DNA of 64,000 nucleotides, taken from contig CAZDOJ010000001.1 of assembly GCA_964507055.1 (NCBI GenBank), positions 1,105,313-1,169,312 on the forward strand, written 5' to 3'. The position numbers were made by a program, and so were the translations under genes. The stretch is from an uncultured Gammaproteobacteria bacterium. GTDB taxonomy: Bacteria > Patescibacteriota > Microgenomatia > Levybacterales > UBA12049. The notes beneath the pieces were generated by a model that made no database searches, was not told the origin of the DNA, and was given only the letters and a program-made list of their open reading frames with translations. Positions 9,747 to 63,514 of this stretch are shown piece after piece. The number at the start of each line of letters is the position of its first letter. Position 1 is the stretch's first letter.

Positions 9747-12131
9747 TTAGAGTCTAGCACGTGTAGCAATTTCTGTTTCGATAACATCCACTGCTCTTCC
9801 GTACTTCAATCGTGAAAGTTCGCGAACTAATTCAGCGACGCGTGGATTTTCCATAGCCTTTTCCTTCTCTACATCCTTTGTCGTGTCCAGAGAGAACGGA
9901 CGAACAGGTTCACCATTAACGATGGTTCGCATATAACAATTGTATTTGTCGACGTTAATTAAGTCCTGTTCACTAAAGATCGGTTGGAATTCATGTTGGA
10001 GATAATTTGCATCAGTCACACCGATACGAAACGACGCAATTGTACCGACGTTACCGAAGATAGCGTTCTTAATTTCCTCTTCCATCTGTCCAATGAACTG
10101 ATTCGCCACAATAAGATTTAAACGGTATTTTCGAGCTTCAGAAAGGATTTGGGCGAAATCAGGTGTGGCAAAGTTCTGAAACTCGTCCACATACAGGAAG
10201 AAATCTTTTCGTTGGTCTTTATCGAGAATATCCTGACGACTCATCGCAGCTACCAAAATTTTTGGAACAAGAATCAATCCTAAGAAACTCGCATTTTCTT
10301 CACCAATTTTACCTTTGGAAAGATTAATCAGGAGAATCTTTTGCTCATCCATAACTTTACGGAAATTGAAGGCACTATCTGATTGACCGATGATATTACG
10401 AATCATTTTATTGGTGACGAAACGACCAAACTTGGAAGTAATATAATCCAAAACTTCAGATTTGTGGAAGTCAGAAGTCTGTGCAATTTGGTCGGTCCAA
10501 TACCTTCTGATGATAGGATCTTCTACTTTAGGCAAAATCTCTTGCACAAAAGCCTGGTCTGTCAAAACACGCATAACTTCAATGAACGTACTGCCCTTTT
10601 CGTACATAACTGTAAGCATCGCGTTACGAACAGCATGTTCAAAACGTGGACCAATAATACCAGTTTTGTTAGGATCAAATAACTTGTACATCAAACCGAT
10701 AATTGAGTTTACGACAAAGTGCTTTTGTTGTTCGGTTTCAGCTTCAAGCATGTTAAAACCCATCGGACGATCAGTATCTGACGGGTCAAAGAGGATAACG
10801 TCTTCGGCACGCTTTGGTGGCATCATCTTCATGATATCTTCAACCAAATCTCCATGAGGATCAATAACCGCAACCCCTTCACCATTCATAATATCCTGCA
10901 TGATCATACTCTTTAGATATTCTGTTTTACCTGTACCAGTTTTTCCAATGATATATGTATGACGACGTCTATCATCACGTTCTACAAAGACCGGTCGAGA
11001 AATACCACGAAAAGTACTTCGTCCAAGGAATAAACCAGTCGTTGGAAGGTTTGATGGAGCAGCCGAACGCTTCGCATTGAGCCAATGAATACCAGGTGTT
11101 GAAATCGATTTATTTGGAAAATGAAAAATACTAGCAAGTTCCTCAGTCGTAAGCACAGATGTCTGACGGAACATTGGGAAATAACGATAAATAAAATCAT
11201 TCATGAAGAGTCCACGATGGAATAGTTCGCGTTTTTTAAATGCATTACTGCCATTAAATTGTCCAAAGGCTCCAAAAATATTTGAGAGATGAGCTTTTGC
11301 GGCTTGTTCTGTTTTCGCACATACGACAATGCGTATGGTTGTATGAAAGCCAGCTTTGCTTAACTTATTTTCCACAGCTTCCATTTCTTTTGCATCTGTT
11401 TTGTAGCTAGCTTTATCGGGATTTGACTCATTTTTTTTCAATCCTGCAAGGTACGTCCTCCCGGCTTTTACCCATTTTGCATCTGCGGGTTTGATAAGGA
11501 TTTGTATTGCAGCACCTTCACCCTCCTGCATCTTTGCAAGAACTGAGGTAATAGAAGACATCGGATCTACAGCGAGATCCTTATACACTTTAATTGGCAT
11601 ATAATCACTTGATTTAAGGTCTGTATAAAGAAAAGCAACCTTGCCATCATCAGAAAAAATATTGTATTCTGTCCCGATTACTCCACCTTGACGCTGCTTT
11701 GCAGCAGGATCATTAACTGGAACAATATCAGCTTCAGGATATGCACCATTAATTTGTTTTTCCACAAAGTCACGATACTTCTGTGGCACATGGATGTAGT
11801 AACGAATATCACCCGGTAATCCTACAATTTCAAAAGAAAGATGTGGTTGCGGCTTAAAGTTTTCGAACTTCCCACTTCCTCGAATTGAAGTAAGACTTGC
11901 AAACATCTGTTGTGCAGCATCGATCTTTGTATCATTATCTCGTGGCACTGTCACTTGTAATAATACTGAATTTAATGAATCAGCTTCACGAGTATGATGA
12001 CGCAAGTAAAGAACGACAGCCCAGTAGAGTCCCCAAAAGATCGCCGCAATTGCTCCGAGAAGAAGCACTATACCTATAAGTGAAGCCATCGCGACTAAAA
12101 CATTATCTACAGTAAGTATTGGTAATTCCAT
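9747..12131 (-). CDS. FtsK/TraG/VirD4-family coupling-protein-like ATPase with N-terminal membrane anchor
   Basis: 794 aa; N-terminal double TM; Walker A 'IIGKTGTGKTEYL'; Walker B 'FFLYVDEFQNF' followed by 'ARKYRLNLIVANQFIGQM' (T4CP-like R..G..Q motif). Confidence 0.5.
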   Translation of the reverse strand: MELPILTVDNVLVAMASLIGIVLLLGAIAAIFWGLYWAVVLYLRHHTREADSLNSVLLQVTVPRDNDTKIDAAQQMFASLTSIRGSGKFENFKPQPHLSFEIVGLPGDIRYYIHVPQKYRDFVEKQINGAYPEADIVPVNDPAAKQRQGGVIGTEYNIFSDDGKVAFLYTDLKSSDYMPIKVYKDLAVDPMSSITSVLAKMQEGEGAAIQILIKPADAKWVKAGRTYLAGLKKNESNPDKASYKTDAKEMEAVENKLSKAGFHTTIRIVVCAKTEQAAKAHLSNIFGAFGQFNGSNAFKKRELFHRGLFMNDFIYRYFPMFRQTSVLTTEELASIFHFPNKSISTPGIHWLNAKRSAAPSNLPTTGLFLGRSTFRGISRPVFVERDDRRRHTYIIGKTGTGKTEYLKSMIMQDIMNGEGVAVIDPHGDLVEDIMKMMPPKRAEDVILFDPSDTDRPMGFNMLEAETEQQKHFVVNSIIGLMYKLFDPNKTGIIGPRFEHAVRNAMLTVMYEKGSTFIEVMRVLTDQAFVQEILPKVEDPIIRRYWTDQIAQTSDFHKSEVLDYITSKFGRFVTNKMIRNIIGQSDSAFNFRKVMDEQKILLINLSKGKIGEENASFLGLILVPKILVAAMSRQDILDKDQRKDFFLYVDEFQNFATPDFAQILSEARKYRLNLIVANQFIGQMEEEIKNAIFGNVGTIASFRIGVTDANYLQHEFQPIFSEQDLINVDKYNCYMRTIVNGEPVRPFSLDTTKDVEKEKAMENPRVAELVRELSRLKYGRAVDVIETEIATRARL

Positions 12132-39642: not shown

Positions 39643-40083
39643 ATGAAAATAACAAATAGTAAAGCTACATTTGATTATGTGTTACATGATACTTTTGAAG
39701 CAGGAATTACTCTGCAAGGTGCAGAAGTAAAAGCGATAAAATTGGGACATGCTGATTTATCAGGAAGTTTTGTGCGAATTATTGGTGGAGAAGCATTTTT
39801 AGTGAATGCAAAAATATTTCCATACAAATTTGCACGCTCTGATGCGTTCGAAGAACGACGTACAAGAAAGCTTCTTATGCATAAAAAAGAGATCATTTCG
39901 CTGAAATCCAAAATGGACGGTTCGAGCTTGACAGTCGTGCCTGTTTCCCTATATACTACGCACAACCTGATCAAACTTGAATTAGCTTTAGCAAAGGCAA
40001 AAAAGAAGTTTGATAAGAAAGAAACGATTAAAAATCGCGATATTGATAGGGATACCGAGCGAGCTCTACGGGGCAAGCGGTAA
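39643..40083 (+). CDS. smpB: SsrA-binding protein SmpB
   Basis: 'KAIKLGHADLSGSFVRIIGGEAFLVNAKIFPY...RTRKLLMHKKEI' canonical SmpB. Confidence 0.9.
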   Translation: MKITNSKATFDYVLHDTFEAGITLQGAEVKAIKLGHADLSGSFVRIIGGEAFLVNAKIFPYKFARSDAFEERRTRKLLMHKKEIISLKSKMDGSSLTVVPVSLYTTHNLIKLELALAKAKKKFDKKETIKNRDIDRDTERALRGKR

Positions 40084-40145: not shown

Positions 40146-40560
40146 GGGGATGAATCGATTCGACGGGAAAAGTTCTTTTAAAACTGCAAGCCGACGATGA
40201 CACATAGTCGCAAAACGAGGTCAAAAAACAAATGCTAAATCTAGCATTCAAGCCTTAAGAGCTGAAAAGGACCGCATTCTTGCGGAACTTAACGGCCTTT
40301 ACGGCGGCCAACAAGCTTACGCACTAGCTGCTTAAGCTTTAAAGCCTGTTCATATAAGTCTTCCCTCGCCGGGACTGTATGGGCATAAAAATAGGTGGGG
40401 AAAACCTTAGAGGAATGGCTCTACCTTTATTGTATTTAGAGCATATACTTTGTTATTCCGGTCAACAGGACACGGCAAAGTGAATAAAAATAGTTGACTA
40501 CGCTTGTAGACGTTTTAAGAAATTTTTTTCACACTCCGGTTCACTGCCGGACATCTCCAC
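40146..40560 (+). ncRNA. ssrA: tmRNA (ssrA)
   Basis: 5' 'GGGGATGAATCGATTCGACGGG' matches tmRNA tRNA-like 5' end; 3' T-arm TCCGG-TTCACTG-CCGGA and acceptor CATCTCC pairing with GGGGATG incl. G3:U wobble; internal ORF ends 'GCTTACGCACTAGCTGCTTAA' (..AYALAA*); immediately downstream of smpB. Confidence 0.8.
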
Positions 40561-40605
40561 AAAAAAACCTCACTCTTCAGTAGGGTTTTCTGTTACTATA
40601 AATAC

Positions 40606-42387: not shown

Positions 42388-42419
42388 TTAAAAGAGGATT
42401 TTGTCTACAATAATGAGTG

Positions 42420-42506
42420 CGGAGGGAACAGGATTCGAACCTGCGGTAGGTTTAACCCCACGACTCCTTAGCAAGGAGTTACCATAAACCACTCGGACAT
42501 CCCTCC
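42420..42506 (-). tRNA. tRNA-Ser (anticodon GCU)
   Basis: minus-strand sequence GGAGGGATGTCCGAGTGG...ACTCC-TTGCTAA-GGAGT..long variable arm..GCAGG-TTCGAAT-CCTGT-TCCCTCC-G; class II tRNA. Confidence 0.8.
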
Positions 42507-42528
42507 TCAGTTCAAATGTTATTTTTTG

Positions 42529-42615
42529 CGGAGGAGATGAGATTCGAACTCATGGACCCTTTGACAGGTCGGAGGTTTAGTAAACCTCTGCACTCGGCCA
42601 CTATGCGACTCCTCC
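42529..42615 (-). tRNA. tRNA-Ser-like class II tRNA with apparent anticodon ACU (A34)
   Basis: GGAGGAG-TC-GCAT..GAGGT-TTACTAA-ACCTC-long variable arm-ATGAG-TTCGAAT-CTCAT-CTCCTCC-G; body highly similar to neighbouring tRNA-Ser(UGA); anticodon loop reads T-T-A-C-T-A-A. Confidence 0.65.
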
Positions 42616-42636
42616 AGATAGGTATTATGTAAGATG

Positions 42637-42723
42637 CGGAGAGAGTGGGATTCGAACCCACGGAAGGCTTGCACCCTCAGATGTTTTCAAGACATCCGCA
42701 CTCGACCACTATGCGATCTCTCC
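42637..42723 (-). tRNA. tRNA-Ser (anticodon UGA)
   Basis: GGAGAGA..GATGT-CTTGAAA-ACATC..long variable arm..GTGGG-TTCGAAT-CCCAC-TCTCTCC-G. Confidence 0.8.
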
Positions 42724-42826
42724 ATAACCTCGTCCAAGTATTCTACCAAAAATTCTATCTAGAAGCTAATAAGAAAATATTTTAGCATTTCTTGACTTCC
42801 TTTTTCTAATCAGTTAGAGTGAAAAT

Positions 42827-43387
42827 ATGGCCACTGCCCCAGCGAAACCCACGGAACAAATTGAAAATATCGATGAGTTAATAGGTGACGAACATATTGT
42901 AAAAACATTCATGTCTTGGCACGCACCTGGTCGGCCATACAGAAAACGATCGAAAGAATATTACATAAATAGCCTCCTTATTACTATTGCCATCGAAATT
43001 ATTCTTTTTCTTTTCTCTCAGTATCTTCTTATGCTCGTCGTTTTTTCACTTGCGTTCTTAGCTTTTGCACTCGCTATTGTTCCACCACATAAATTCTATT
43101 ACAGCATAAGTACTGAGGGAATACGTATTGAAGACAATTACTTCATTTGGGATGAACTCTATGATTTCTATTTTATGAAGCGGCAAGGAGTAGATGTGCT
43201 CCATGTTCGAACGAAGGCATATTTCCCAGGAGAATTGACGATAGTGCTTGGAGATATTCCTGTGGAGCAAGTACGTAAAGTTTTACTCATGTTTCTTCCA
43301 TACCGTGAATACGTCGAACCAACATTTATGGAAAAAGCAGGAGATTGGCTGGAAAGAAATTTCCCATTGGAAAGAACTACGCAATAA
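42827..43387 (+). CDS. hypothetical membrane protein
   Basis: 186 aa, two central TM helices. Confidence 0.3.
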   Translation: MATAPAKPTEQIENIDELIGDEHIVKTFMSWHAPGRPYRKRSKEYYINSLLITIAIEIILFLFSQYLLMLVVFSLAFLAFALAIVPPHKFYYSISTEGIRIEDNYFIWDELYDFYFMKRQGVDVLHVRTKAYFPGELTIVLGDIPVEQVRKVLLMFLPYREYVEPTFMEKAGDWLERNFPLERTTQ

Positions 43388-43440
43388 ATTCATTATTAGT
43401 TGCCTCAAAAACCCGTATAAGGTAAAATACACGTTACTAT

Positions 43441-43514
43441 GCACCCGTAGCTTAGCTGGATAGAGCACAACATTGCGGATGTTGAGGTCGGAAGTTCGAA
43501 TCTTCTCGGGTGTA
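43441..43514 (+). tRNA. tRNA-Arg (anticodon GCG)
   Basis: 74 nt: GCACCCG-TA-GCTT-AGCTGGATA-GAGC-A-CAACA-TTGCGGA-TGTTG-AGGTC-GGAAG-TTCGAAT-CTTCT-CGGGTGT-A. Confidence 0.7.
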
Positions 43515-43574
43515 CTTAGGTCGAAAGGATCCCCTTTTCCATGGGATTCACCGTTATAATAACGGATATTCTTG

Positions 43575-43664
43575 GAGGGATCGCATAGTGGTCGAGTGCG
43601 GCGGTTTCGAAAACCGCTGTCCTGATTTTCTTCGGGACCGAGGGTTCGAATCCCTCTCCCTCCG
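43575..43664 (+). tRNA. tRNA-Ser (anticodon CGA)
   Basis: GGAGGGA..GCGGT-TTCGAAA-ACCGC..long variable arm..GAGGG-TTCGAAT-CCCTC-TCCCTCC-G. Confidence 0.8.
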
Positions 43665-43672
43665 CAAATAGC

Positions 43673-44707
43673 TTATTTCTTCTTACTCATCTTGCCAAAA
43701 AGTTGTAATTCCCAGATAAAGAGAAGCATGAGGGCGATTATTGCAATTACTGAGGCTTTCCAGATACCACGAGCAACTTTCTTCACCTTCATCTCTTCCA
43801 AGCGTTTTGACCATCTTGCTAATTTTGCTCGATAATCATTTTTTGTTTGCTCGTCCATGTCTGAAGTTTCTATATCAACAGCTCCTCTTTTTAATTGGGC
43901 TTGAGCATCATTTACAGTACTATCTGCCTCCTCAGTACTAATTTCTTCTTTATCTTTGGGATCCTCGTTCTCTTTTTCTAAAGGAAATCCACTTAATAAT
44001 TCTTCTTTTTGTTCAGCATTAAGATCAGACATTTCCTCGACTACAGCTTGGACTTCATCTCTGGATAAACCACTCAAAGCAGCTTTTGTTGCCTGCATTT
44101 CCTCAGCACTCAAGCGTTCTTTCCCGGCTATAATTTTTGCTGCTGCTGTCATTTTTCGAAGATTTTCCTTATCTTTCTCTGGAACTTCAACCGAGTTAAC
44201 TAATTTATCTACAGCCTGCTCTTCACTATTTTTCGATTCATCAACTTCTTCTTTAGATTGGGGTTGGTAATCAATTACCTCTTGAATCTTTCCATCACTG
44301 CTTTCATCTAAGCTATTTAACAACTCAGTAAAAGCTGTTCTTGCTTGATCATTTTGCTGAATTTGATGCGTTCTTTGTGTAACTTTTGCAATATCTTGTT
44401 TTTCTTCATCAGATAATTCTTCTAGATATGTAGCACTATACACCTCACCAATAGATGTTTTGAGTTTTTCTTTTGATTCATCGGTAAAATTCCCCTCTCC
44501 ATCCACGGGAGTACTTTTAACCTCCCACAGAAATTCTTTTACCTGCTCAGCAATATTTGCTTTGGCAAAAGCTTCTCTCTTTTCCTGATCTGGCACAGAA
44601 GCCTCATAGTGGGCTTGTTTTTCCTGTTCTCGTGCCTGTTCTTGGTTATCTCCTGACTCCATATCTTTCCTTTCTCCTATCCTCCAATATTTAGCCTGAA
44701 TTGTCAA
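43673..44707 (-). CDS. hypothetical acidic coiled-coil protein with C-terminal membrane anchor
   Basis: 344 aa, E/K/D/Q-rich, predicted helical; C-terminal TM 'VIAIIALMLLFIWELQLF'. Confidence 0.35.
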   Translation of the reverse strand: MTIQAKYWRIGERKDMESGDNQEQAREQEKQAHYEASVPDQEKREAFAKANIAEQVKEFLWEVKSTPVDGEGNFTDESKEKLKTSIGEVYSATYLEELSDEEKQDIAKVTQRTHQIQQNDQARTAFTELLNSLDESSDGKIQEVIDYQPQSKEEVDESKNSEEQAVDKLVNSVEVPEKDKENLRKMTAAAKIIAGKERLSAEEMQATKAALSGLSRDEVQAVVEEMSDLNAEQKEELLSGFPLEKENEDPKDKEEISTEEADSTVNDAQAQLKRGAVDIETSDMDEQTKNDYRAKLARWSKRLEEMKVKKVARGIWKASVIAIIALMLLFIWELQLFGKMSKKK

Positions 44708-44822
44708 GCTAGAATCCTATCAAACTTGGATACCTATAAAGAATAGGTTATAATTACAAAATCATTGTAATAGAACTCTGCCTTGTACACTTGATATTTT
44801 CCTTATAAAAAAATTACGAATT

Positions 44823-44906
44823 GGAGGAGTCGGATAGCGGTCTATTCCACACGCTTGGAAAGCGTGCGAGCGTAAGCTCACGCGGGTTCGAATCCCGCCT
44901 CCTCCG
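44823..44906 (+). tRNA. tRNA-Ser (anticodon GGA)
   Basis: GGAGGAG..CACGC-TTGGAAA-GCGTG..long variable arm..GCGGG-TTCGAAT-CCCGC-CTCCTCC-G. Confidence 0.75.
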
Positions 44907-44956
44907 CCCACGCCCTTACTATTGACAACCCAAAGTAAATCCATCACACTGAAATT

Positions 44957-51336: not shown

Positions 51337-51660
51337 ATGGACTACTTAGCACTTACACTCCCCGGCGGAAGAAATATACAACCTCCAGGAGAGATACCAA
51401 ATGGTGGACTTGATACGCTTTCAAGTGCAATAAGTGCAGGAATATCATGGATGATTATTATTGCAGTAATACTATCATTATTTTTTCTCGTGACAGGTGG
51501 TGTCGCATGGTCGGCATCAGGTGGAGATAAAGGAAAAATCGCTGCTGCACGTGCAAGACTTACCTATGCAGTAATTGGATTAATCGTAGCAATTGCGTCA
51601 TTCTTCCTTATAAATGTATTTGGAACATTCTTTGGAGTTACACTTTTAGGGAACAATTGA
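51337..51660 (+). CDS. VirB2/TrbC-like pilin (paralog 1)
   Basis: 107 aa; two hydrophobic helices flanking conserved 'SGGDKGKIAAARARLTYAVIGLIVA'. Confidence 0.5.
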   Translation: MDYLALTLPGGRNIQPPGEIPNGGLDTLSSAISAGISWMIIIAVILSLFFLVTGGVAWSASGGDKGKIAAARARLTYAVIGLIVAIASFFLINVFGTFFGVTLLGNN

Positions 51661-51699
51661 GATAATCTGATCTATTGACAAAGATTAAATTATTGTTCT

Positions 51700-52128
51700 A
51701 TGATAAGTAAAGATAACATGAAAAAAGTTTTAACAGCTATAGTTTCAGGAGGAGCAGCATATCTAGCAACTGCAGGGATTGCACTTGCAGGAGGTACAAG
51801 TGTTGATCCATGTCCTGAAGCAGGACAATTTCAAAATCTTTGTAATCTAAATGGTGATAATCTTGGAGCGATTATCGGAGCTGCAGTAACCTTTATCTTA
51901 ATCGTGGCTGTTCTTATTGCCCTATTCTTCCTTATCTTCGGTGGTATCCGTTGGATTACATCAGGCGGAGATAAAGCAAAAGTAGAAAGTGCACGAGGCA
52001 CAATTATTGCAGCAATCATTGGTTTAGTTATAGCTTTCTTAGCATTCTTTATCCTTTCATTAGCTTTGAGCTTCTTCGGACTCAGTCTCACAGAACTCGA
52101 ACTCCCTACAATCGACGGACTTAACTAA
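51700..52128 (+). CDS. VirB2/TrbC-like pilin (paralog 2)
   Basis: 142 aa; signal-like N-term, Cys pair, 'TSGGDKAKVESARGTIIAAIIGLVIA'. Confidence 0.5.
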   Translation: MISKDNMKKVLTAIVSGGAAYLATAGIALAGGTSVDPCPEAGQFQNLCNLNGDNLGAIIGAAVTFILIVAVLIALFFLIFGGIRWITSGGDKAKVESARGTIIAAIIGLVIAFLAFFILSLALSFFGLSLTELELPTIDGLN

Positions 52129-52216
52129 GTTTATTTAGAGTTTCCATACTTATTCCCTTTTTTAATATAGTTATACCCTCTTGCTTTTTGTTAAATATAT
52201 TTGCTAGGCTAAATAT

Positions 52217-52618
52217 ATGTTAAAGAAATTACTTCTTGTATCACTCGCTGCACTGACGCTAATTTTTACTGCCGCTCCTATTTCACCTGTTCATGCACAA
52301 TTCAGAGACTGGGGTGATGGCTGTGTAGATCAAAATGGAATTGCGTCTCTTCGATGCATTCCGTTTGTATTTGGCAATATTGTATACGCTCTTCTTATGT
52401 TTGTTGGTACAGTTGCAGTAGTTCTCCTTGTATATGCAGGCATCCGCTTTATATCCTCGGGAGGAGATCCAAAGAAAGTTGCTGGGGCACGACAAATTAT
52501 TACGTACGCACTTATTGGACTGGTATTGGTACTCTCATCTTTTGCGATAATAGCACTCATAAGTTACACAACCGGAGTTGAGTGTATTCGAACATTCGGT
52601 TTTGACACCTGTAAATAA
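52217..52618 (+). CDS. VirB2/TrbC-like pilin (paralog 3)
   Basis: 133 aa; signal peptide 'AAPISPVHA', Cys pairs, 'SSGGDPKKVAGARQIITYALIGLVLV'. Confidence 0.5.
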   Translation: MLKKLLLVSLAALTLIFTAAPISPVHAQFRDWGDGCVDQNGIASLRCIPFVFGNIVYALLMFVGTVAVVLLVYAGIRFISSGGDPKKVAGARQIITYALIGLVLVLSSFAIIALISYTTGVECIRTFGFDTCK

Positions 52619-52846
52619 CCCCTAACTTTTCACAATTAAGGCTAAGTAGCTACTCCTTTTGACCTACTTTGTTGGGGTTGCAATCAAATTTTTCACGTTA
52701 TACACTTTTAGCAATAGAAGACACTACTTTATGTCTTTTAAATCGGGTATTAAGCATACTATCCGGAACAACAGCAAAGATTTTTGAAAATCAGCATCAT
52801 TTGCTCGTTTTTATTGTAGGTGTGCTTAGAATTTATCTAATTTGTT

Positions 52847-54238
52847 ATGGATCAACATCCTATACCACAAGATGTAACTGGATTTCAGTTTAAATTGATT
52901 GGCACAATGACCGTTAAGCAATTCGGTTATGTGGCTGTTGGTGCTGTAATGGCTGTTATTCTTTATTACCTTCCATTAAGTGGATTTTTTGGGGTAATGT
53001 TTAAAGTATTCATGATCCCATTACTAGGAGCAAGTGGTGTGGTTATCGCCTTTGTTCCAATAGATGGACGACCAATTGACACTATGACATCTAATTTTAT
53101 AAAAGCATTGTTCTCTCCAAATCAGTATATCTACAAACGCCAGGGACGTAAGATGAGTTTTTCAATCGTAACAGTTGTAAAACCAGCCGTTGCTGCCGCT
53201 CAAACAGCAAATAAGACTCCTGGACAAAATGCTACATCAGCAAAAGAAGCCGATGATAAAGAGGCAAAGCTACGAGCATTCTTAAATAGCTCTCAAGGAC
53301 GAGTTCAAAATGATCTCGATAAAAAAGAAGCGTCCTTCTTAAAATCATTTGGGCCACCAACAATCGCCGTGCCGAATAAAACTCCCATGGTAACCACCCC
53401 ATTGGCAAAACCAAGTTTAGCAGTCACTCAAAAAACAGTTATTGCGAAACCAACTGCAACTTTACTGGTAGCACAACCTCCAAAACCACTCGCTCAAATT
53501 GCAGTAAAACCAACCCCTTCAAACGGAGCGACAAAGGTATCACCTGTTTCTACACCAGTAGGATCTCCTGCTCCAATACCTCAACCTCAAACGCTGGAAC
53601 AAAAAGAACTGAGCCTTGCACAGGAACTTGCTCAAGCAAAGCAAGAAGAAGCCTCACAAGTCCAACCAGCAGCACATGATGTAGCACATGCAAAAGTTGA
53701 AACACTAGCGAAACAGATTGAAGACATTCATACACAAAAGCACAAGCTTGAAACAGAGCTTTCAGCTCTCAAACAACAACTCACCCAGGAGAAAACCACA
53801 TCTGCACCAATGCAGGCTCCAACCCCAGTACAACCAATCGCAGTAGCAAAGCCAGCTATTCCTATTCAGGACCCGCACCTAGTCAAAGTTGTTGCAGGAG
53901 CAACAAAAGCACCTGAAGTCCCAAGAGTATCCGATACTCCAAATGTTGTTGTGGGAATTGTAAAAGATCCTCGAGGAAATATCCTCTCAAATATACTTGT
54001 TGAGGTTAAAGATAGTGAAGGAAATCCTGTTCGTGCCTTTAAGACAAACCCTCTTGGGCAGTTTGCTTCAGCTACTCCACTAAGCCCTGGCGTATATACT
54101 CTTGAGCTCGAAGATCCTAAAAAACTCCACAGCTTTGACGTCATTCAAATAACTGCAAATAATGAGATTATGCGTCCAATTGAAGTAATTTCTCATGATG
54201 CAAGAGAAGCATTACGACAACAATTATTTGCATCATAA
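52847..54238 (+). CDS. VirB3-like membrane protein with long P/A/Q-rich linker and C-terminal beta-sandwich (CarbPepD_reg-like) domain
   Basis: N-terminal ~100 aa with two TM helices directly upstream of VirB4-like genes; linker; C-terminal 'VVGIVKDPRGNILSNILVEVKDSEGNPV...GVYTLELED'. Confidence 0.4.
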   Translation: MDQHPIPQDVTGFQFKLIGTMTVKQFGYVAVGAVMAVILYYLPLSGFFGVMFKVFMIPLLGASGVVIAFVPIDGRPIDTMTSNFIKALFSPNQYIYKRQGRKMSFSIVTVVKPAVAAAQTANKTPGQNATSAKEADDKEAKLRAFLNSSQGRVQNDLDKKEASFLKSFGPPTIAVPNKTPMVTTPLAKPSLAVTQKTVIAKPTATLLVAQPPKPLAQIAVKPTPSNGATKVSPVSTPVGSPAPIPQPQTLEQKELSLAQELAQAKQEEASQVQPAAHDVAHAKVETLAKQIEDIHTQKHKLETELSALKQQLTQEKTTSAPMQAPTPVQPIAVAKPAIPIQDPHLVKVVAGATKAPEVPRVSDTPNVVVGIVKDPRGNILSNILVEVKDSEGNPVRAFKTNPLGQFASATPLSPGVYTLELEDPKKLHSFDVIQITANNEIMRPIEVISHDAREALRQQLFAS

Positions 54239-54248
54239 AACCTAACCT

Positions 54249-54917
54249 ATGGCTGCCCAAAAAATACACGCTACAACACAGAAATTTACAGAGATCGTCG
54301 ACTTCGGCGAGGATATTGTAATTCTTGAAGGTGGGAATGCTTGCATGATCATAGAGATCACAGCAAGTAATTTTGCTTTGCTCTCAAAACGAGAACAGGA
54401 TTCGAGAATTTTTTCATATGCTGGACTATTAAACTCCCTTTCCTTCCCCATTCAAATCTTAATTCGAAACAGACGAATGGACATATCACAATATATCGTG
54501 GAATTAAACGAGATTATAAAGAATACCAAGAATCCTCAACTTCGAGCATACGTAGAATACTACAGTGGCTTTGTGCAAGAAATGGTTACGGTAAATGTCG
54601 TACTTAATAAACAATTTTATATTGTGGTTCCTTTTTCTTCTCTTGAACTTGGTGTAGCAGGAGCAACGCAAACAACACAAAAAGGACAAGCACAAGTCGA
54701 CGCATTTACGACTTCAGCAAGAAAAGCACTTCAGACAAAGGCAAATTCGCTCTTGGGTCAATTACAAAAATTTGCAACTTCAGCAAAAGTATTAGAGAAA
54801 GAAGATCTTATAAAACTATTTTACGAAATTTATAATGAAACAACTGAAGTGGATATGGATCAGATGGAAGAAGGGGCTGAAGCCTCAATTGTTAAAGGAG
54901 GACAAGCACAACAATGA
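54249..54917 (+). CDS. hypothetical protein, possible separately encoded N-terminal domain of VirB4
   Basis: 222 aa; stop overlaps ATG of VirB4-like ORF (ATGA); downstream ORF lacks typical VirB4 N-terminal domain. Confidence 0.35.
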   Translation: MAAQKIHATTQKFTEIVDFGEDIVILEGGNACMIIEITASNFALLSKREQDSRIFSYAGLLNSLSFPIQILIRNRRMDISQYIVELNEIIKNTKNPQLRAYVEYYSGFVQEMVTVNVVLNKQFYIVVPFSSLELGVAGATQTTQKGQAQVDAFTTSARKALQTKANSLLGQLQKFATSAKVLEKEDLIKLFYEIYNETTEVDMDQMEEGAEASIVKGGQAQQ

Positions 54918-56959
54918 ACTTACCTTTTGGAAAAAAAGCTAATCCGGCTGCACCAGCTCCAGCAGCTACACCTGTACAAAAAGCTGCCGTGGCAACACCC
55001 GGAGCTAAACCTGCAGTTGCACCAGCAAAAGGAAAAGCTCCAGCAGCTCCCATTTCTAAAGGAATAGACACATTTGAAAAAGGCCTGACCTCCGTTGTGG
55101 ATCTTATCGCACCTTCTTCTGTTGAGGTTGATTTCCGATATATTAGAGTTGGAGATAATTTCTATACTACCCTTTTCATCGCAGGATATCCTCGTTATGT
55201 CTCTCCTGGATGGCTTGAGGGAATTATCGATTACGACCATACTATGGATATTGCAATGTTTTGTTACCCAACATCATCATCAGATGTTTTGGCAGACTTG
55301 AAGAGAAAAATTGGAGAGATGCAGGCTACGCTCGCATCGGATGCCGAACAGGGAAAAGTTGCAGACCCAACAGTCGAAGCAGCACTTGAAGATGCGTTGG
55401 GACTTCAAGAAGAGCTGGCAAAGGGCGTTGAGAGATTTTTCCAATTTGGGTTCTACATCACTGTTTCCGATGGTGATATTACAAAGCTGCAAGAAACAAT
55501 AAAAAACCTCCAAACGGCACTTGGATCACTGCTTTTAACTGGAAAAATTGCAACGCTACAGATGGAGGAAGGTTTTAAATCTTCTTTACCAATGGGACAA
55601 GATCGTCTCTACATTACAAGAAATATGGATACGTCTTCTCTTGCCTCGACATTCCCATTTACCTCAGCAGTTCTGACACAAAATAGAGGTGTTATGTATG
55701 GTGTGAACCAACAAAATGGTTCACTTATTATCTTTGATCGATTCTCTCTAGAAAATGCAAATGAAGTCGTTTTGGGTAAATCCGGTGCAGGAAAATCGTA
55801 CACGATCAAACTTGAGATCATGCGGCAATTTATGCTTGGAGCTGAAGTTATCGTTATTGACCCCGATGGAGAATATGAAACAATGACTCCAGCACTTGGC
55901 GGCGAAGTTGTTGAATTCTCTTCAGGTTCAGCAATCAAGATTAATCCTTTTGATCTTTCCGACGTGTATGAAGAAGGCGAAAATGAACTAGGTTTGAAAA
56001 TCATGTCATTGCATGGATTACTTAAGATTATTACAGGAGAACTGGATGCAGAACATGATGCGATCCTAGATAGAGCACTAATTGAAACATATCGTTCCAA
56101 AGGAATTACTACAGATCCAGCAACACAAAAAAAACAGCCTCCCCTTCTAGAAGATTTATACAAAATTCTTCTCGGTATGGAAAATGATACTGCGAAATCA
56201 CTCGCATATTCGCTTGAAAAATTCATCAAAGGAAGTGCTTCAGGTATCTTCAACCAACAATCAAATTTCGAAATTAATAATCCACTTACGATTTTCTCTA
56301 TTCGTAATTTAGAAGAAGCCCTCAGACCTGTGGCGATGCATATTATTCTAGATTTCGTTTGGACGAAAGTAAAAAAGTCACTTAAAAAGCGTACATTAAT
56401 TCTTGATGAAGGATGGTACATGATGAAGTATCAAGACTCTGCTTCCTTTGTTTATTCGATCGCCAAACGTGCCCGTAAATACTATCTTGGATTAACAACA
56501 GCGACACAGGATGTGGAAGACTTTTTAAAGAACGAGTATGGGAAAGCTGTACTTACCAACTCATCAATCCAAGTCCTTCTCAAACAGGGTACAGCAGAAG
56601 TGGATATGATTACGGATACTTTCTACCTTTCTGAAGGAGAGAAGGCACTACTGCTCTCTGCTGACGTAGGAGAAGGACTCTTCTTTGCAGGACAGAACCA
56701 CGTAGCAATGAAGGTTTTTGCGGCACCATTTGAACATGAACTTATTACATCTAATCCTATGGAATTATTAAAGAGACAGCAGGAAAAAGAGCGTGCGAAT
56801 CTTGCTGCAGGAGTTAAACCTGATAATGCAGACACTGGTACCCCTCCAGTAGAAAATCCAGCCGTAGCACCAGTGACAAATACACCATCTGTCGAAAATC
56901 CTGATATTCCACAGACTCCTCCACCTGGTACACCTCCAGGAGGAACGCCAACAACATAG
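54914..56959 (+). CDS. VirB4/TrbE/CagE-like type IV secretion ATPase
   Basis: 681 aa; Walker A 'VLGKSGAGKSYTIK', Walker B 'TLILDEGWYMM', 'GLTTATQDV'; C-terminal P/T-rich tail. Confidence 0.75.
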   Translation: MNLPFGKKANPAAPAPAATPVQKAAVATPGAKPAVAPAKGKAPAAPISKGIDTFEKGLTSVVDLIAPSSVEVDFRYIRVGDNFYTTLFIAGYPRYVSPGWLEGIIDYDHTMDIAMFCYPTSSSDVLADLKRKIGEMQATLASDAEQGKVADPTVEAALEDALGLQEELAKGVERFFQFGFYITVSDGDITKLQETIKNLQTALGSLLLTGKIATLQMEEGFKSSLPMGQDRLYITRNMDTSSLASTFPFTSAVLTQNRGVMYGVNQQNGSLIIFDRFSLENANEVVLGKSGAGKSYTIKLEIMRQFMLGAEVIVIDPDGEYETMTPALGGEVVEFSSGSAIKINPFDLSDVYEEGENELGLKIMSLHGLLKIITGELDAEHDAILDRALIETYRSKGITTDPATQKKQPPLLEDLYKILLGMENDTAKSLAYSLEKFIKGSASGIFNQQSNFEINNPLTIFSIRNLEEALRPVAMHIILDFVWTKVKKSLKKRTLILDEGWYMMKYQDSASFVYSIAKRARKYYLGLTTATQDVEDFLKNEYGKAVLTNSSIQVLLKQGTAEVDMITDTFYLSEGEKALLLSADVGEGLFFAGQNHVAMKVFAAPFEHELITSNPMELLKRQQEKERANLAAGVKPDNADTGTPPVENPAVAPVTNTPSVENPDIPQTPPPGTPPGGTPTT

Positions 56960-57004
56960 ATACATTCTCTTACCACGACCTCGTGTTTTTGATACTATTA
57001 AACT

Positions 57005-59770
57005 ATGGCAACTGATACTAAAACTCGGGATAATACGAAGCAAGGGCTGATTGATCCACAAAAGCGAGAAAAGCAAGAACAAGATCATGAATATGATCAC
57101 CATAAAATAGCTGAAGCTGCTGGTAGTAGGATTCGACGGTTTAGCTTAACGCTTAAAGCCGGTCCAAATATTCACAACGAAGCAGTTAAGCTAGCAAAAG
57201 AAGTTGAACATAGTGTTGAGGCATTTGAAAAAATAGGAAAATCAGAAGATGCGATATTAGAAGAAGTTGAGAGAATAGTACTGAGGGCAGAACAGAGTCT
57301 TCAATCAGAAGCAAAGGCCGAAAAGAAAGCAGAGGAAAAGGAAAAGGAAAAAAAGGAAGAGGAAGAAAAAAAGCACCATGGAGAGCATGAAGAGCATGAT
57401 ACAAAGAGGCATGAACAAGAAAAACCTGCAAGTGCAAATAAATCGATAGAAGAAAAAAGTCAGGAAAAAGTTGAAGAACTCAAGGCAGAAATTGCAGCAG
57501 GGGTAGCGGGGACGGCTGTGGGAGCAACTGTCGCAGCATCTCTTCCTGAATTTACTCCAGAACGAGATCAGACACTAAAGACAGAACAAGATACACTTTT
57601 GGCTGGAGCTGAAAAAGCGAGAATAGCCGCATTACCCCCTGAAGAAAAAGCAAAATTACGACTAGAAGAAATCCGTAATGGAACGTATAAAAAACCCTCT
57701 ATAAACTCTGATATAAATTTCACACCAGATAAACCAGTAAGCGGTAAAATAATAGATCAACAGACAGTAACAAATTTCCCTCAAGGGGTACACGAGACTG
57801 CAGTAAAAGAGAGACTTGCAAAGTTACGAGAAGAAGCACGTACTCCACAAAAAAACGTGCGAAAAATGGGGAGAGCCGCTCCAGCAGAGCGAAAGAAAAT
57901 ACACATACAAACACCTGACAATGTACGAAAGAATATACCTCCACGCGGAATACAAATGAGAATTAATGCTCGAACCTCTCCCCCTTTAATCAGACCTTCA
58001 GGCTCAAGAAGACGAATGATGGGCGGAATGACAACAACGACAACAAGCGAGAGCTCTTTTCAAAGAGGTGAAGGAACTACCTATGAAGATGTCACGGAAT
58101 TCCGACTACGAAGACCTATGCCATCCCAAGTAACGTCTGAAACAGAAGAACGAGGCGGGACATACTCAAGCGGAGGAGGAAGTGGTAGTGGTGGCCAATC
58201 ATCAGGAGGTGGAAATAGTGGAGGAGGCAGTGGAGGATCTTCAGGTGGAGGACATGGACCACAGAGAGGTGGACTCGGAAATCCTGCACGAAATATTTTG
58301 CGCGGAGGACTTGGAGGAGGAAAAGGTATGGGAGGGCTGGCAAAAGGTGGCACTCAAGCATTTGCAAAACAAGGAGCAAAAGTCGCAGCACAAGCATTAT
58401 TGCGTAATCCATATGTTTTAGCCGCAATAGCCGTAATTCTCATTGTTATTATCATTATCTTGTTTATAATTTTCCTCGTGACAGGCCAGGAAGCAACAGA
58501 TAACGCTTGTACCGCTCCGCCTGAAACAATGACTGCAACGATAAATGGACCCGCAACCGCAAATGCTGGACAAGAATTAACATATGAAGTAAAGATAGCA
58601 GATACTGTTGCTGCCCAAGATGTTACTATTGTTGCAACAATTCCTCAAGGTCAAACATTTGTACGATCAGATTGGGCAAAAAGTGTCGTTACGGGAAGTA
58701 CTGTAACATGGAAAGCAACAGAAAATTTGCCTCCAAACAGTCTAAGTCCACCCAATTTTACATTTAATATCACTCTCAGTCCGGGAGCAGCAAATACAAA
58801 TTCTGTCCTTATGGTTGATGCTACACCAATAAGAACGACTGCAGTAGCACCGGGTGCAGGTGGAAACCAACAAGCGGGAAGACAAAAAAGCACAGAGGAA
58901 TTAAAAACTATTTATGGTGCAGATCAAGCAGCAGTTGAAGCAAATTTGGTAACAATAGACTTTCAAGGAAAACAAGTACAAGTAAATAAACTTGTGCAAG
59001 GTGTATTTGAAAAAGTTAATACTGAAATCACTGCGGCGAACACGGGTTATGCATTCAGACAAGTTGGTACATATTCATGGCGAACAAAAAATATTCCCGG
59101 ACAAAATTCTTCAGAACTATCTACACATAGTTTTGGAATTACCATAGATATTAACCCTGATACGAATCCATATACAACAGCAAACACTCATGATATCCCA
59201 CCTGAAATTGTGACGATATTTAAGAATAATGGATTCATCTGGGGTGGAGATTGGAGTCCACAACATGACTGGATGCACTTTGAATATGCCGGTGCTCCGA
59301 ATGCTGTTCCAGGATCAGGAGGCTCGGGAGGATGTACTCCTGGGGCTGGTGGTCCGATATCTGCAAATTATGTTCCACCAAGTGCTGATACCTGTGGTGG
59401 AAAGTACAAGTTGAATAGTTCGCTCAAGATGAACTTCGGAGATCCACAATGTAATTTCAATAAAGATGCGTTATATTCACAGCTAAAGGCAGAAGATCCA
59501 GCTAACGCAGATGTATGGTTCAACAAGATTATAAAATGTGAGAGTTCCTATAATCCAAATGCATATGCTGGTAATGCTGTTGATGCAGCCGGTGCATGGG
59601 GACTGTACCAAATGGGTAGTGCAACCCCTCCAGGATCCCCCCCTCCTGCTGAAGGAAAGAATGGGATAAACGACAGAGGAGATGTCCCTTGGGTTATACA
59701 AACAACGAATGCAACAACGTACGGGAAAAGAATTTCGAGTCTCGGTGCATATTGGGCATGTGCAAGGTAA
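57005..59770 (+). CDS. T4SS-associated multidomain cell-wall hydrolase (Lys/Glu-rich N-term, Gly-rich segment, TM, Ig-like repeat, M15 peptidase-like and lysozyme/SLT-like domains)
   Basis: 921 aa; TM 'LAAIAVILIVIIIILFIIFLV'; 'STHSFGITIDIN' and 'DWMHFEY' (M15 SxHxxGxAxD / HFE-like); 'CESSYNPNA...GAWGLYQM' lytic-transglycosylase-like. Confidence 0.5.
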   Translation: MATDTKTRDNTKQGLIDPQKREKQEQDHEYDHHKIAEAAGSRIRRFSLTLKAGPNIHNEAVKLAKEVEHSVEAFEKIGKSEDAILEEVERIVLRAEQSLQSEAKAEKKAEEKEKEKKEEEEKKHHGEHEEHDTKRHEQEKPASANKSIEEKSQEKVEELKAEIAAGVAGTAVGATVAASLPEFTPERDQTLKTEQDTLLAGAEKARIAALPPEEKAKLRLEEIRNGTYKKPSINSDINFTPDKPVSGKIIDQQTVTNFPQGVHETAVKERLAKLREEARTPQKNVRKMGRAAPAERKKIHIQTPDNVRKNIPPRGIQMRINARTSPPLIRPSGSRRRMMGGMTTTTTSESSFQRGEGTTYEDVTEFRLRRPMPSQVTSETEERGGTYSSGGGSGSGGQSSGGGNSGGGSGGSSGGGHGPQRGGLGNPARNILRGGLGGGKGMGGLAKGGTQAFAKQGAKVAAQALLRNPYVLAAIAVILIVIIIILFIIFLVTGQEATDNACTAPPETMTATINGPATANAGQELTYEVKIADTVAAQDVTIVATIPQGQTFVRSDWAKSVVTGSTVTWKATENLPPNSLSPPNFTFNITLSPGAANTNSVLMVDATPIRTTAVAPGAGGNQQAGRQKSTEELKTIYGADQAAVEANLVTIDFQGKQVQVNKLVQGVFEKVNTEITAANTGYAFRQVGTYSWRTKNIPGQNSSELSTHSFGITIDINPDTNPYTTANTHDIPPEIVTIFKNNGFIWGGDWSPQHDWMHFEYAGAPNAVPGSGGSGGCTPGAGGPISANYVPPSADTCGGKYKLNSSLKMNFGDPQCNFNKDALYSQLKAEDPANADVWFNKIIKCESSYNPNAYAGNAVDAAGAWGLYQMGSATPPGSPPPAEGKNGINDRGDVPWVIQTTNATTYGKRISSLGAYWACAR

Positions 59771-62404: not shown

Positions 62405-63514
62405 TTAGCCTTGTACTCTAATCGGCATGATCATATGAAGATACGATTCATCGCCCTGAACCTTGAAGACTCCTGGATTAAGAGGACCAATCATGTCAAA
62501 TGCTAAATCTTTTTCTTCAACATTTGACAGAACATCAAGTAAATATCTTGCGTTAAAAGCAATTTCATTTTCTTCTCCACTCAACTTTGCATCAACCCTC
62601 ACAGTATTCTCTCCAATTGCCGAAGAACCAGAGGAGACAGTAATGTGATCAGATGAAAGTGCGAGCTTAATAATATTTGCGGAATCACGAGCAAAGACCG
62701 AACAAATCTTAACTGCTTTTAATAATTCATCTTTGTCGAACGATACACTTACTGAAAAATCTGATGGAATAATCTTTTCAAAGTTAGGAAACTCGGCTTC
62801 AATTAAACGTCCAATAAGAATTGTATCTTCTTGTTCGAAAATAACTTGATTATTCTGCTGTGAGACGTACATGCTTATATTCTTCGTATCATCCTTCAAT
62901 GAAAGTAATTCTCTAAATACACGAGCGGGAATAATAAATGATGAAGATTCAGATGCTTTATTTTCACTCGATTTATAGTGTCGTAGTGATAATCTATAAC
63001 CATCAGTCGAAACAAGAAGAAAGCCTTCAGCTTCTTTCCGAACCAATACACCTGATAACGCTGGACGTGTCGTGTCTGGACTTGCAGCAAAAACAACAGA
63101 TGAAAATTCCTTCTTAATATCTTTACCAGATAAAGTTGCCAAGAGTTCTCCTCGTTCTTCATAAAGCTTAGGGAATTCTTCGCTACTAATTGTTTGAAAT
63201 GTACTTTTCGTCCGTTTTGTTTGTACTTGAAGCGTATTCTCTTCTGATGTTAATGTTAGGACTTCATCTGTTAAAGAATTTATAAGTTCCGTAAAAAGCT
63301 TTGCTGGTACTGTAGTTTTACCTTCTTCATCTATCTTTGCAGGACAATATGCTTCTATACCAATTTCTAAGTCAGTCGTACTTAACTTTACTTTATCGTC
63401 CTTTGCTTCAATAAGAATGTTCTGCAATACGGGCAATTGAGTTTTAGAAGAAACGGCTTTATTAAGAAACGAAAGTTTATTTTGAAGGTTAGGGGTCAAT
63501 ATCTGTACTTTCAT
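62405..63514 (-). CDS. dnaN: DNA polymerase III beta sliding clamp
   Basis: 369 aa; 'MKVQILTPNLQNKLSFLNKAVSSKTQLPVLQNILIEAKDDKVKLSTTDLEIGIE' typical DnaN N-terminus; three-domain length. Confidence 0.9.
   Translation of the reverse strand: MKVQILTPNLQNKLSFLNKAVSSKTQLPVLQNILIEAKDDKVKLSTTDLEIGIEAYCPAKIDEEGKTTVPAKLFTELINSLTDEVLTLTSEENTLQVQTKRTKSTFQTISSEEFPKLYEERGELLATLSGKDIKKEFSSVVFAASPDTTRPALSGVLVRKEAEGFLLVSTDGYRLSLRHYKSSENKASESSSFIIPARVFRELLSLKDDTKNISMYVSQQNNQVIFEQEDTILIGRLIEAEFPNFEKIIPSDFSVSVSFDKDELLKAVKICSVFARDSANIIKLALSSDHITVSSGSSAIGENTVRVDAKLSGEENEIAFNARYLLDVLSNVEEKDLAFDMIGPLNPGVFKVQGDESYLHMIMPIRVQG

Follow-up and report, generated by a model that had tools for sequence, protein, structure and literature searches.

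The window, by which we mean the whole 64-kb stretch of DNA analysed here, carries a tRNA-Ser gene with the anticodon ACU. We think it probable that this gene encodes a functional seryl-tRNA of an old Patescibacterial isoacceptor family that exists beside tRNA-Ser(GCU), in which an unmodified A34 would read AGU and tRNA-Ser(GCU) would cover AGC. The avoidance of unmodified A34, above all in two-codon boxes, is an open puzzle of decoding. Seven ANN tRNAs of two-codon boxes were called universally absent by the Agashe and Gallie groups in May 2026, and such tRNAs are only sporadic in GtRNAdb, which covers 4047 bacteria; to examine them, these authors had to build engineered versions in E. coli (bioRxiv 10.64898/2026.05.15.725136). 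An earlier note on this DNA had stated that A34 is very rare in bacteria outside tRNA-Arg(ACG), in agreement with that work. We found no description of a tRNA-Ser(ACU) in CPR in the open-access literature that we searched; in public MAGs, the ACU genes of CPR have presumably been annotated automatically.

A class II tRNA-Ser gene with an encoded A34

ARAGORN found six tRNA genes in the window, among them a tRNA-Ser with anticodon (act) on the minus strand at 42528-42615. The Rfam model RF00005 matched 42615-42529 over its full length with 49.8 bits (gathering score 29; E 1.1e-7) and no non-canonical pair was flagged. We place the gene at 42529..42615 on the minus strand, with 87 nt to G73 and no encoded CCA. 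Its score above the gathering threshold and its long variable arm, with a variable region of about 18 nt in the Rfam alignment, identify it as a class II tRNA, and the two programs agree with the earlier note, which had read a class II, Ser-like tRNA at these positions. The note had also given the anticodon loop as TTACTAA and the anticodon as ACU, and had proposed a check with a tRNA predictor; ARAGORN returned act, and the Rfam alignment puts ACU at model positions 34-36. On the plus strand these three letters read AGT (42579..42581), A34 being the complement of T42581. In the same alignment, the anticodon stem GAGGU/ACCUC closes a 7-nt loop, U32-U33-A34-C35-U36-A37-A38, and G18G19, the GTTCGAATC T-loop and a regular T-stem are all kept.

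The identity set of bacterial tRNA-Ser consists of a long variable arm, G73 and the pairs G1-C72, G2-C71 and A3-U70 (and C11-G24); the anticodon plays no part in it. The full set is present in the window tRNA, C11-G24 included. The gene is a genuine class II tRNA-Ser with A34. When the anticodon is left out of the comparison, the tRNA shares 71% identity with the tRNA-Ser(UGA) of the window, 74% with tRNA-Ser(CGA), 70% with tRNA-Ser(GGA) and 53% with tRNA-Ser(GCU). Its body had been described as nearly identical to that of tRNA-Ser(UGA), which overstates the likeness, as it is only the D-arm that is almost the same as in the UGA and CGA tRNAs.

A conserved cluster of serine and arginine tRNA genes

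The ACU gene is the middle one of a run of three genes on the minus strand and lies about 20 nt from each neighbour. tRNA-Ser(UGA) (42637..42723) is the first gene of this run and tRNA-Ser(GCU) (42420..42506) the last; the latter is the partner isoacceptor, able to read AGC and, by G:U wobble, AGU. The three genes are probably transcribed as one run. A promoter-like site upstream of tRNA-Ser(UGA) (42779..42808, minus strand; TAGAAA, 18 nt, TG-TAAAAT) is a candidate promoter for it, recognised by consensus match only in a region where the count of promoter-like matches is not above the shuffled expectation.

Divergent from the run, on the plus strand, lies the gene of a 186-aa protein (42827..43387) that belongs to no Pfam family. 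It has more than 1000 homologues, under names that include Saccharimonadales and Patescibacteria group, and we used it as the anchor for tracing the tRNA cluster by synteny through Saccharimonadia-like genomes. tRNA-Arg(GCG) (43441..43515), tRNA-Ser(CGA) (43574..43665), which is the window Ser tRNA nearest in body to the ACU tRNA, and tRNA-Ser(GGA) (44822..44910), the fifth Ser isoacceptor of the cluster, are also on the plus strand, and all these tRNA genes were found by both ARAGORN and Rfam. The interval 42419-44910 accordingly holds five Ser isoacceptors (GCU, ACU, UGA, CGA and GGA) and tRNA-Arg(GCG) within 2.5 kb around the 186-aa protein, and this arrangement is conserved across Saccharimonadia-like contigs.

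Judging by the names of the homologues of the 186-aa protein, the DNA comes from a Saccharibacteria-like member of the Patescibacteria (CPR); its G+C content is 38%. smpB (39643-40083) is directly followed by a full-length tmRNA gene (40146-40562; 102.8 bits). Gene sets resembling type IV secretion systems, which are typical of Saccharibacteria, are found at 9747-12131 and 51337-59770; they include three T4SS_pilin genes and genes for PrgI-like and TraC-like proteins, a VirB4/TraG-like ATPase and an M15 peptidase. A TrwB/VirD4-like coupling ATPase is encoded separately from these genes. The window also contains genes for GAPDH, ribonucleotide reductase and glutamate dehydrogenase, as well as dnaN, which is located at the window end (62405-63514, minus strand) with dnaA, rpmH, rnpA and yidC just beyond it (L207, 18821-21845). 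The window adjoins the chromosomal replication origin region.

The gene in independent assemblies and in related genomes

The anticodons ACU and GCU are one base apart, and the earlier note, judging from a single sequence, had raised the possibilities of an assembly error and of a recent G34A variant. We give next to no probability to an artefact of sequencing or assembly, to a pseudogene or to a recent G34A change in tRNA-Ser(GCU). The 186-aa protein was found exactly in several independent assemblies from different sequencing runs, and the identical ACU gene is present in four independent assemblies (SRR14271340, -36, -35 and -59) whose contigs cover the tRNA. The closest sequenced relative, with an anchor protein 85% identical, is the complete chromosome OZ246394.1 of another species (GCA_965230895.1; L332), where the GCU-ACU-UGA order is the same as in the window and the ACU tRNA is identical. 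In the more distant GCA_041743715.1 (anchor protein 80% identical), the tRNA order is again the same and the ACU tRNA has diverged but still folds. A search for the same gene in related genomes, which the note had recommended, thus places ACU in the same slot of the two closest sequenced relatives, and the suggested assembly error can be set aside. A fresh mutation is contradicted by the adjacent GCU gene, which is only 53% identical, and by the family itself, which spans at least 119 species and shows compensatory changes, as described below.

An ACU family across Patescibacteria

Each species was represented by one genome (its GTDB representative) in a scan for the loop YTACTAA within a tRNA of class II geometry; by our own estimate, about 15 matches would arise by chance. 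The scan gave at least 119 loci from 119 genomes, and ARAGORN called a tRNA-Ser(act) in every locus listed. Eighty-four of these listed loci are labelled Patescibacteria/CPR; the labels among the listed matches cover Saccharibacteria, Paceibacteria/Parcubacteria groups, Microgenomates groups, Magasanikbacteria and Falkowbacteria. Another 17 listed loci come from MAGs labelled Gammaproteobacteria or Pseudomonadales, with tRNAs mostly 86-99% identical to CPR-labelled ones (78-80% in two cases), and their sequences suggest that these are probably mislabelled CPR genomes. Eight listed loci have no taxon label and tRNAs 87-100% identical to CPR-labelled ones. In about 10 listed loci (Verrucomicrobiales, Planctomycetes, Flavobacteriales, Polynucleobacter, Melainabacteria), the tRNA is closest to the viral tRNAs considered below.

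The 17 MAGs with a Gammaproteobacteria or Pseudomonadales label (TPA_asm; L010, L014, L020, L025, L033, L040, L048, L055, L061, L069, L078, L088, L094, L108, L116, L122 and L124) have G+C contents of 35-49%. Two of them are represented by contigs of about 1 Mb, and Arg(GCG)/Arg(CCG) neighbours and Arg(GCG)/Ser clusters are seen in several.

The search pattern fixed the loop, the D-loop GG and the T-loop, so that independent evidence of conservation comes only from the stems and the acceptor, and there, across the 132 distinct ACU sequences among the matches listed, 99% of the cloverleaf pairs are canonical, 18 of the 25 pairs show compensatory double substitutions, and the identity pairs G1-C72, G2-C71 and A3-U70 are present in 132, 131 and 130 sequences, respectively. 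C11-G24 is found in 76 of the 132, the window type among them. With masked anticodons, 131 of 137 ACU tRNAs have as their nearest neighbour from a different locus another ACU tRNA, and the mean identity between ACU and GCU tRNAs of the same locus is 63%. Since ACU tRNAs cluster with ACU tRNAs and stand at this distance from GCU, tRNA-Ser(ACU) appears from these comparisons to be an old isoacceptor lineage and not a repeated G34A accident; the masked-anticodon clustering rules out repeated derivation from GCU. The recent G34A variant of the earlier note is likewise refuted, both by the 53% identity to the neighbouring GCU gene and by the strong covariation in this family of at least 119 species.

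Two body types can be distinguished. The first, with a D-arm like that of Ser(UGA)/(CGA), occurs in Saccharibacteria and Microgenomates and includes the window gene; the second occurs in Paceibacteria-type genomes. The window gene fits the Patescibacterial Ser(ACU) family as we define it here: a class II Ser tRNA with the anticodon ACU that groups with other ACU tRNAs, has the pairs G30-C40 and U31-A39, and is linked on the chromosome to Ser(GCU) or Ser(UGA). In the anticodon arm, G30-C40, U31-A39, U32, A37 and A38 are the same in 130 of 137 ACU tRNAs. This signature could be taken for a tuning of the arm to A34, but CPR Ser(CGA) has it too and Ser(UGA) differs only by C32; we therefore attribute it to ancestry and reject an A34-specific adaptation. 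The 5' half of window-type ACU tRNAs, with the whole anticodon stem in it, is common to CPR Ser(CGA)/(UGA) (L069 3392-3477 versus L127 1222-; window 42529-42615 versus 43574-43665). The sequences suggest that the ACU tRNA originated either by duplication of a UCN-type tRNA with remodelling of the anticodon or by gene conversion among the clustered genes, with missense intermediates along both routes.

One Saccharibacteria-like metagenome contig (L140, 5727-5799, minus strand) yielded an ARAGORN tRNA-Asn with anticodon ATT, another split-box A34; its anticodon stem looks poorly paired, which may point to a miscall or a pseudogene. tRNA-Ile(UAU), a rare route to the reading of AUA without the lysidine system, was seen in Paceibacteria/Nomurabacteria-type loci (L017 7689-7764, L054 1780-1854, L084 6449-6522) and also in many viral arrays.

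The AGN box and the state of A34

AGA is the most used Arg codon of the window (220 codons), and AGU and AGC occur 321 and 92 times. At all five AGA codons of the window glutamate dehydrogenase gene, the aligned residue of the Thermotoga enzyme is Arg. The AGN box thus has its usual division between Ser and Arg, and a reassignment of AGA/AGG to serine is ruled out in the window. In the Codetta screen, no reassignment of AGA/AGG to serine was found in bacteria, and the only new reassignment in CPR was that of CGA/CGG to tryptophan in Absconditabacteria (PMC8629427).

AGU makes up 78% of the AGY codons of the window, which equals the share of U for Asn, Asp and His (AAU, GAU, CAU). Pooled over relatives of similar G+C, the AGU share is 0.57 with the ACU gene and 0.51 without it. 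The earlier idea that an AGU reader could fit the AT-rich codon usage is a weak one, as the share of AGU is no greater than that of AAU, GAU and CAU and carriers hardly differ from non-carriers. Codon usage is therefore at most a minor contributor and not the driving force.

A34 could be converted into I34 by a deaminase, TadA-like or of another kind, in which case the tRNA would decode AGU, AGC and partly AGA, as in eukaryotic and tRNA-Arg(ICG) systems. Encoded A34 is indeed usually masked as inosine, and the two-codon-box A34 of an E. coli Phe-tRNA(AAA) became I34 (bioRxiv 10.64898/2026.05.15.725136). Several observations nevertheless make inosine unlikely here. The Arg tRNAs of the CPR-type loci examined (L006-L204) comprise 69 GCG, 24 CCG and no ACG, and Shulgina and Eddy had reported CPR to be without tRNA-Arg(ACG) (PMC8629427); the lineage reads CGY with the G34 of tRNA-Arg(GCG), not with I34. 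No deaminase domain was found among the annotated genes of the window. To our knowledge, tRNA-Arg(ACG) is the only bacterial need for TadA, so that where it is absent the usual bacterial reason for having the enzyme is missing. The TadA substrate has the motif U33-A34-C35-G36, whereas the loop of the window tRNA is U33-A34-C35-U36. Wobble inosine goes with boxes whose U-, C- and A-ending codons specify one amino acid, but here AGA is Arg. I34 would read AGA and bring serine to arginine positions, which would be harmful here because AGA is the main Arg codon and the Arg tRNA is GCG, not ACG. tRNA-Ser(GCU), kept adjacent, would moreover be redundant if I34 read AGC.

In E. coli, a TadA-bearing host, an orthogonal tRNA with the ACU anticodon was unmodified, which also argues against inosine. 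It gave 9.4% reassignment at AGU and 0.36% at AGG, with AGC and AGA below detection (PMC11066159). An engineered Ser-tRNA(ACU) was tolerated in E. coli and even improved growth (bioRxiv 10.64898/2026.05.15.725136).

Occupancy of the orthologous slot

A sample independent of the anticodon was obtained by retrieving 80 metagenome loci through the 186-aa protein. The ACU tRNA is present in 17 of them, in most cases beside GCU/UGA in the cluster and in two cases about 2 kb away. In 14 others, GCU and UGA are adjacent and the ACU gene is absent, and about 45% of the observable slots are empty of it. No second GCU or other extra Ser anticodon was found in the 80 loci. Carriers among the anchor-retrieved loci tend to be closer relatives, in a patchy pattern. 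Because so many observable slots are empty, the ACU gene is dispensable, or else relocatable and mobile, within Saccharimonadia, and given the frequent losses its selective benefit may be small. The slot, however, holds either ACU or nothing, which argues for selection on the anticodon where the gene is kept.

This last point bears on the idea of a serine-charged tRNA used mainly outside decoding, as a seryl donor for cell-wall or lipid aminoacylation or a regulatory RNA that its 'forbidden' anticodon bars from the ribosome. Such a role would suit a gene that is dispensable in about half of the related genomes sampled and whose presence codon usage fails to explain, and split-box A34 is avoided elsewhere. 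We judge it quite unlikely, as an irrelevant anticodon should drift, whereas the orthologues found by synteny have ACU in 17 of 17 cases, to which L332 and L334 can be added. G18G19, the T-loop and the regular T-stem are also kept, unlike in known non-proteinogenic tRNAs, and AGU was read efficiently by an ACU tRNA in vivo (PMC11066159). Viral arrays rich in tRNAs for A/U-ending codons, furthermore, contain Ser(ACU) in the place expected for Ser(GCU), which fits decoding. A dedicated AGU reader seems, from our analysis, the best functional reading of the window gene.

tRNA-Ser(ACU) in phage tRNA arrays

IMG/VR was scanned with the same tRNA pattern as the species representatives. At least 120 viral contigs (L208-L327) carry a tRNA-Ser(ACU), confirmed by ARAGORN in every case. 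Most of the listed viral ACU genes are in arrays of 5-27 tRNA genes that are rich in tRNAs for A/U-ending codons, and Ser(GCU) is present in just one of the 37 large viral arrays among the matches listed. ANN tRNAs have been reported absent from phages (bioRxiv 10.64898/2026.05.15.725136), and the phage ACU arrays contradict this report. The 50,697 GenBank phage records contain hardly any close relatives of the viral ACU tRNAs: megablast with 37 viral representatives recovered a single unannotated faecal phage record, and BLAST with one viral ACU tRNA against cultured phages matched only Ser(UGA)/(GCU) genes. ACU tRNAs may have escaped surveys of cultured phages for this reason.

The listed viral arrays contain other A34 tRNAs, namely three Leu(AAG) (L224, L240, L248), one Gly(ACC) (L245), one Phe(AAA) (L327) and seven Arg(ACG), and they also hold tRNAs with a CTA anticodon (amber suppressor-like), which ARAGORN labels 'Pyl'. 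A PHROG scan of two viral loci gave two families of unknown function.

With so many viral carriers, mostly inside tRNA arrays, and about 10 listed non-CPR carriers whose tRNAs are closest to viral ones, the window gene might be phage-derived cargo newly acquired by the genome rather than a host tRNA. This is very unlikely for the window gene, which is part of a conserved chromosomal Ser/Arg tRNA cluster whose order is kept in distant relatives; its body resembles the host Ser(CGA)/(UGA) and its flanks are free of phage genes.

Among the non-CPR loci, Ser(ACU)-like genes closest to viral tRNAs were seen in two Polynucleobacter isolates and a betaproteobacterial MAG (L060 3195-3284, L065 1494-1584, L075 1789-1878). 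In L060 the acceptor strands are unpaired (GGAAACG versus CCTCTCC), a state that would suit a site of tRNA-targeted integration or a decayed gene copy. The ACU tRNA of a Flavobacteriales MAG (L053) is identical to that of the viral contig L232.

A possible decoding scheme and its implications

We propose the following scheme for the window tRNA as a dedicated AGU reader. SerRS ignores the anticodon, and most synthetases of the other NNY two-codon boxes use it. Because of this blindness, SerRS is expected to charge tRNA-Ser(ACU), and a G34A change should, by the identity rules, cost nothing in charging. Serine would thus offer a possible split box in which an A34 tRNA can arise without loss of aminoacylation. 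A34 would be left unmodified, since the lineage is without tRNA-Arg(ACG) and so presumably without the TadA A-to-I system, and Watson-Crick pairing of A34 with U3 would decode AGU. The A37 that follows U36 is probably modified to t6A. tRNA-Ser(GCU) would still be needed for AGC; it lies within 8 kb of the ACU gene in 69 of the 123 ACU loci, and its retention there fits an AGU-only role of ACU.

More generally, Patescibacteria and, independently, many uncultivated phages may keep a natural, probably unmodified split-box A34 tRNA. It would be the first exception to the exclusion of two-codon-box ANN tRNAs that is conserved across a clade, made possible by an anticodon-blind SerRS and the lack of an A-to-I system. 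Our confidence in this broader statement is evenly divided. A natural tRNA-Ser(ACU), conserved in a bacterial radiation and present in phage arrays, would mean that the 'ban' on A34 is not absolute. The conditions that lift it would be, as our data point to, an anticodon-blind synthetase and a lineage without wobble inosine for arginine, presumably also without a wobble deaminase. The family supplies natural material on the fidelity of A34 decoding against the Arg codons AGA/AGG and, if our reading is true, a test of why A34 is avoided elsewhere. It also bears on the annotation of CPR genomes and on models of codon usage and tRNA adaptation for CPR and their phages.

Comparison with known systems

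The window tRNA resembles bacterial tRNA-Ser(GCU) in its class II fold with a long variable arm, G73, its predicted charging by an anticodon-blind SerRS, the AGY box that it would serve and U36-A37, as expected for t6A37. It has A34 in place of G34, so that AGU would be read by Watson-Crick pairing and AGC would probably be left unread. It is also an extra isoacceptor and not a replacement, with a body 53% identical to that of GCU in the window and 63% on average.

Encoded A34 is found in lineages without an I34 system in Mycoplasma tRNA-Thr(AGU), where it presumably remains adenosine (PMC11066159), and in yeast mitochondrial tRNA-Arg(ACG), where the same is presumed (compare PMC3711424). Both tRNAs serve four-codon boxes, in which a promiscuous A34 is harmless, whereas the window ACU tRNA serves a split box in which AGA/AGG are Arg. 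Conservation of an encoded A34 across a clade is shared with tRNA-Arg(ACG), the substrate of TadA, and with Leu(AAG) and Thr(AGU) of Firmicutes. These tRNAs are deaminated, however, and their I34 reads three codons of one amino acid; the window has a UACU loop and tRNA-Arg(GCG), and inosine would misread AGA.

The ACU tRNAs engineered in E. coli (Schmitt 2024, PMC11066159; Raval 2026, bioRxiv 10.64898/2026.05.15.725136) have the same anticodon, retain A34 and are AGU-selective, but they are artificial constructs, whereas the window gene belongs to a natural, conserved gene family. The tRNA-Ser(ACU) of IMG/VR phages shares the anticodon and the class II serine architecture, and in many cases the GGUUUACUAAACC anticodon arm as well. 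In phages it is mobile and usually stands in for GCU, whereas the ACU gene of the window is chromosomal and syntenic and coexists with tRNA-Ser(GCU).
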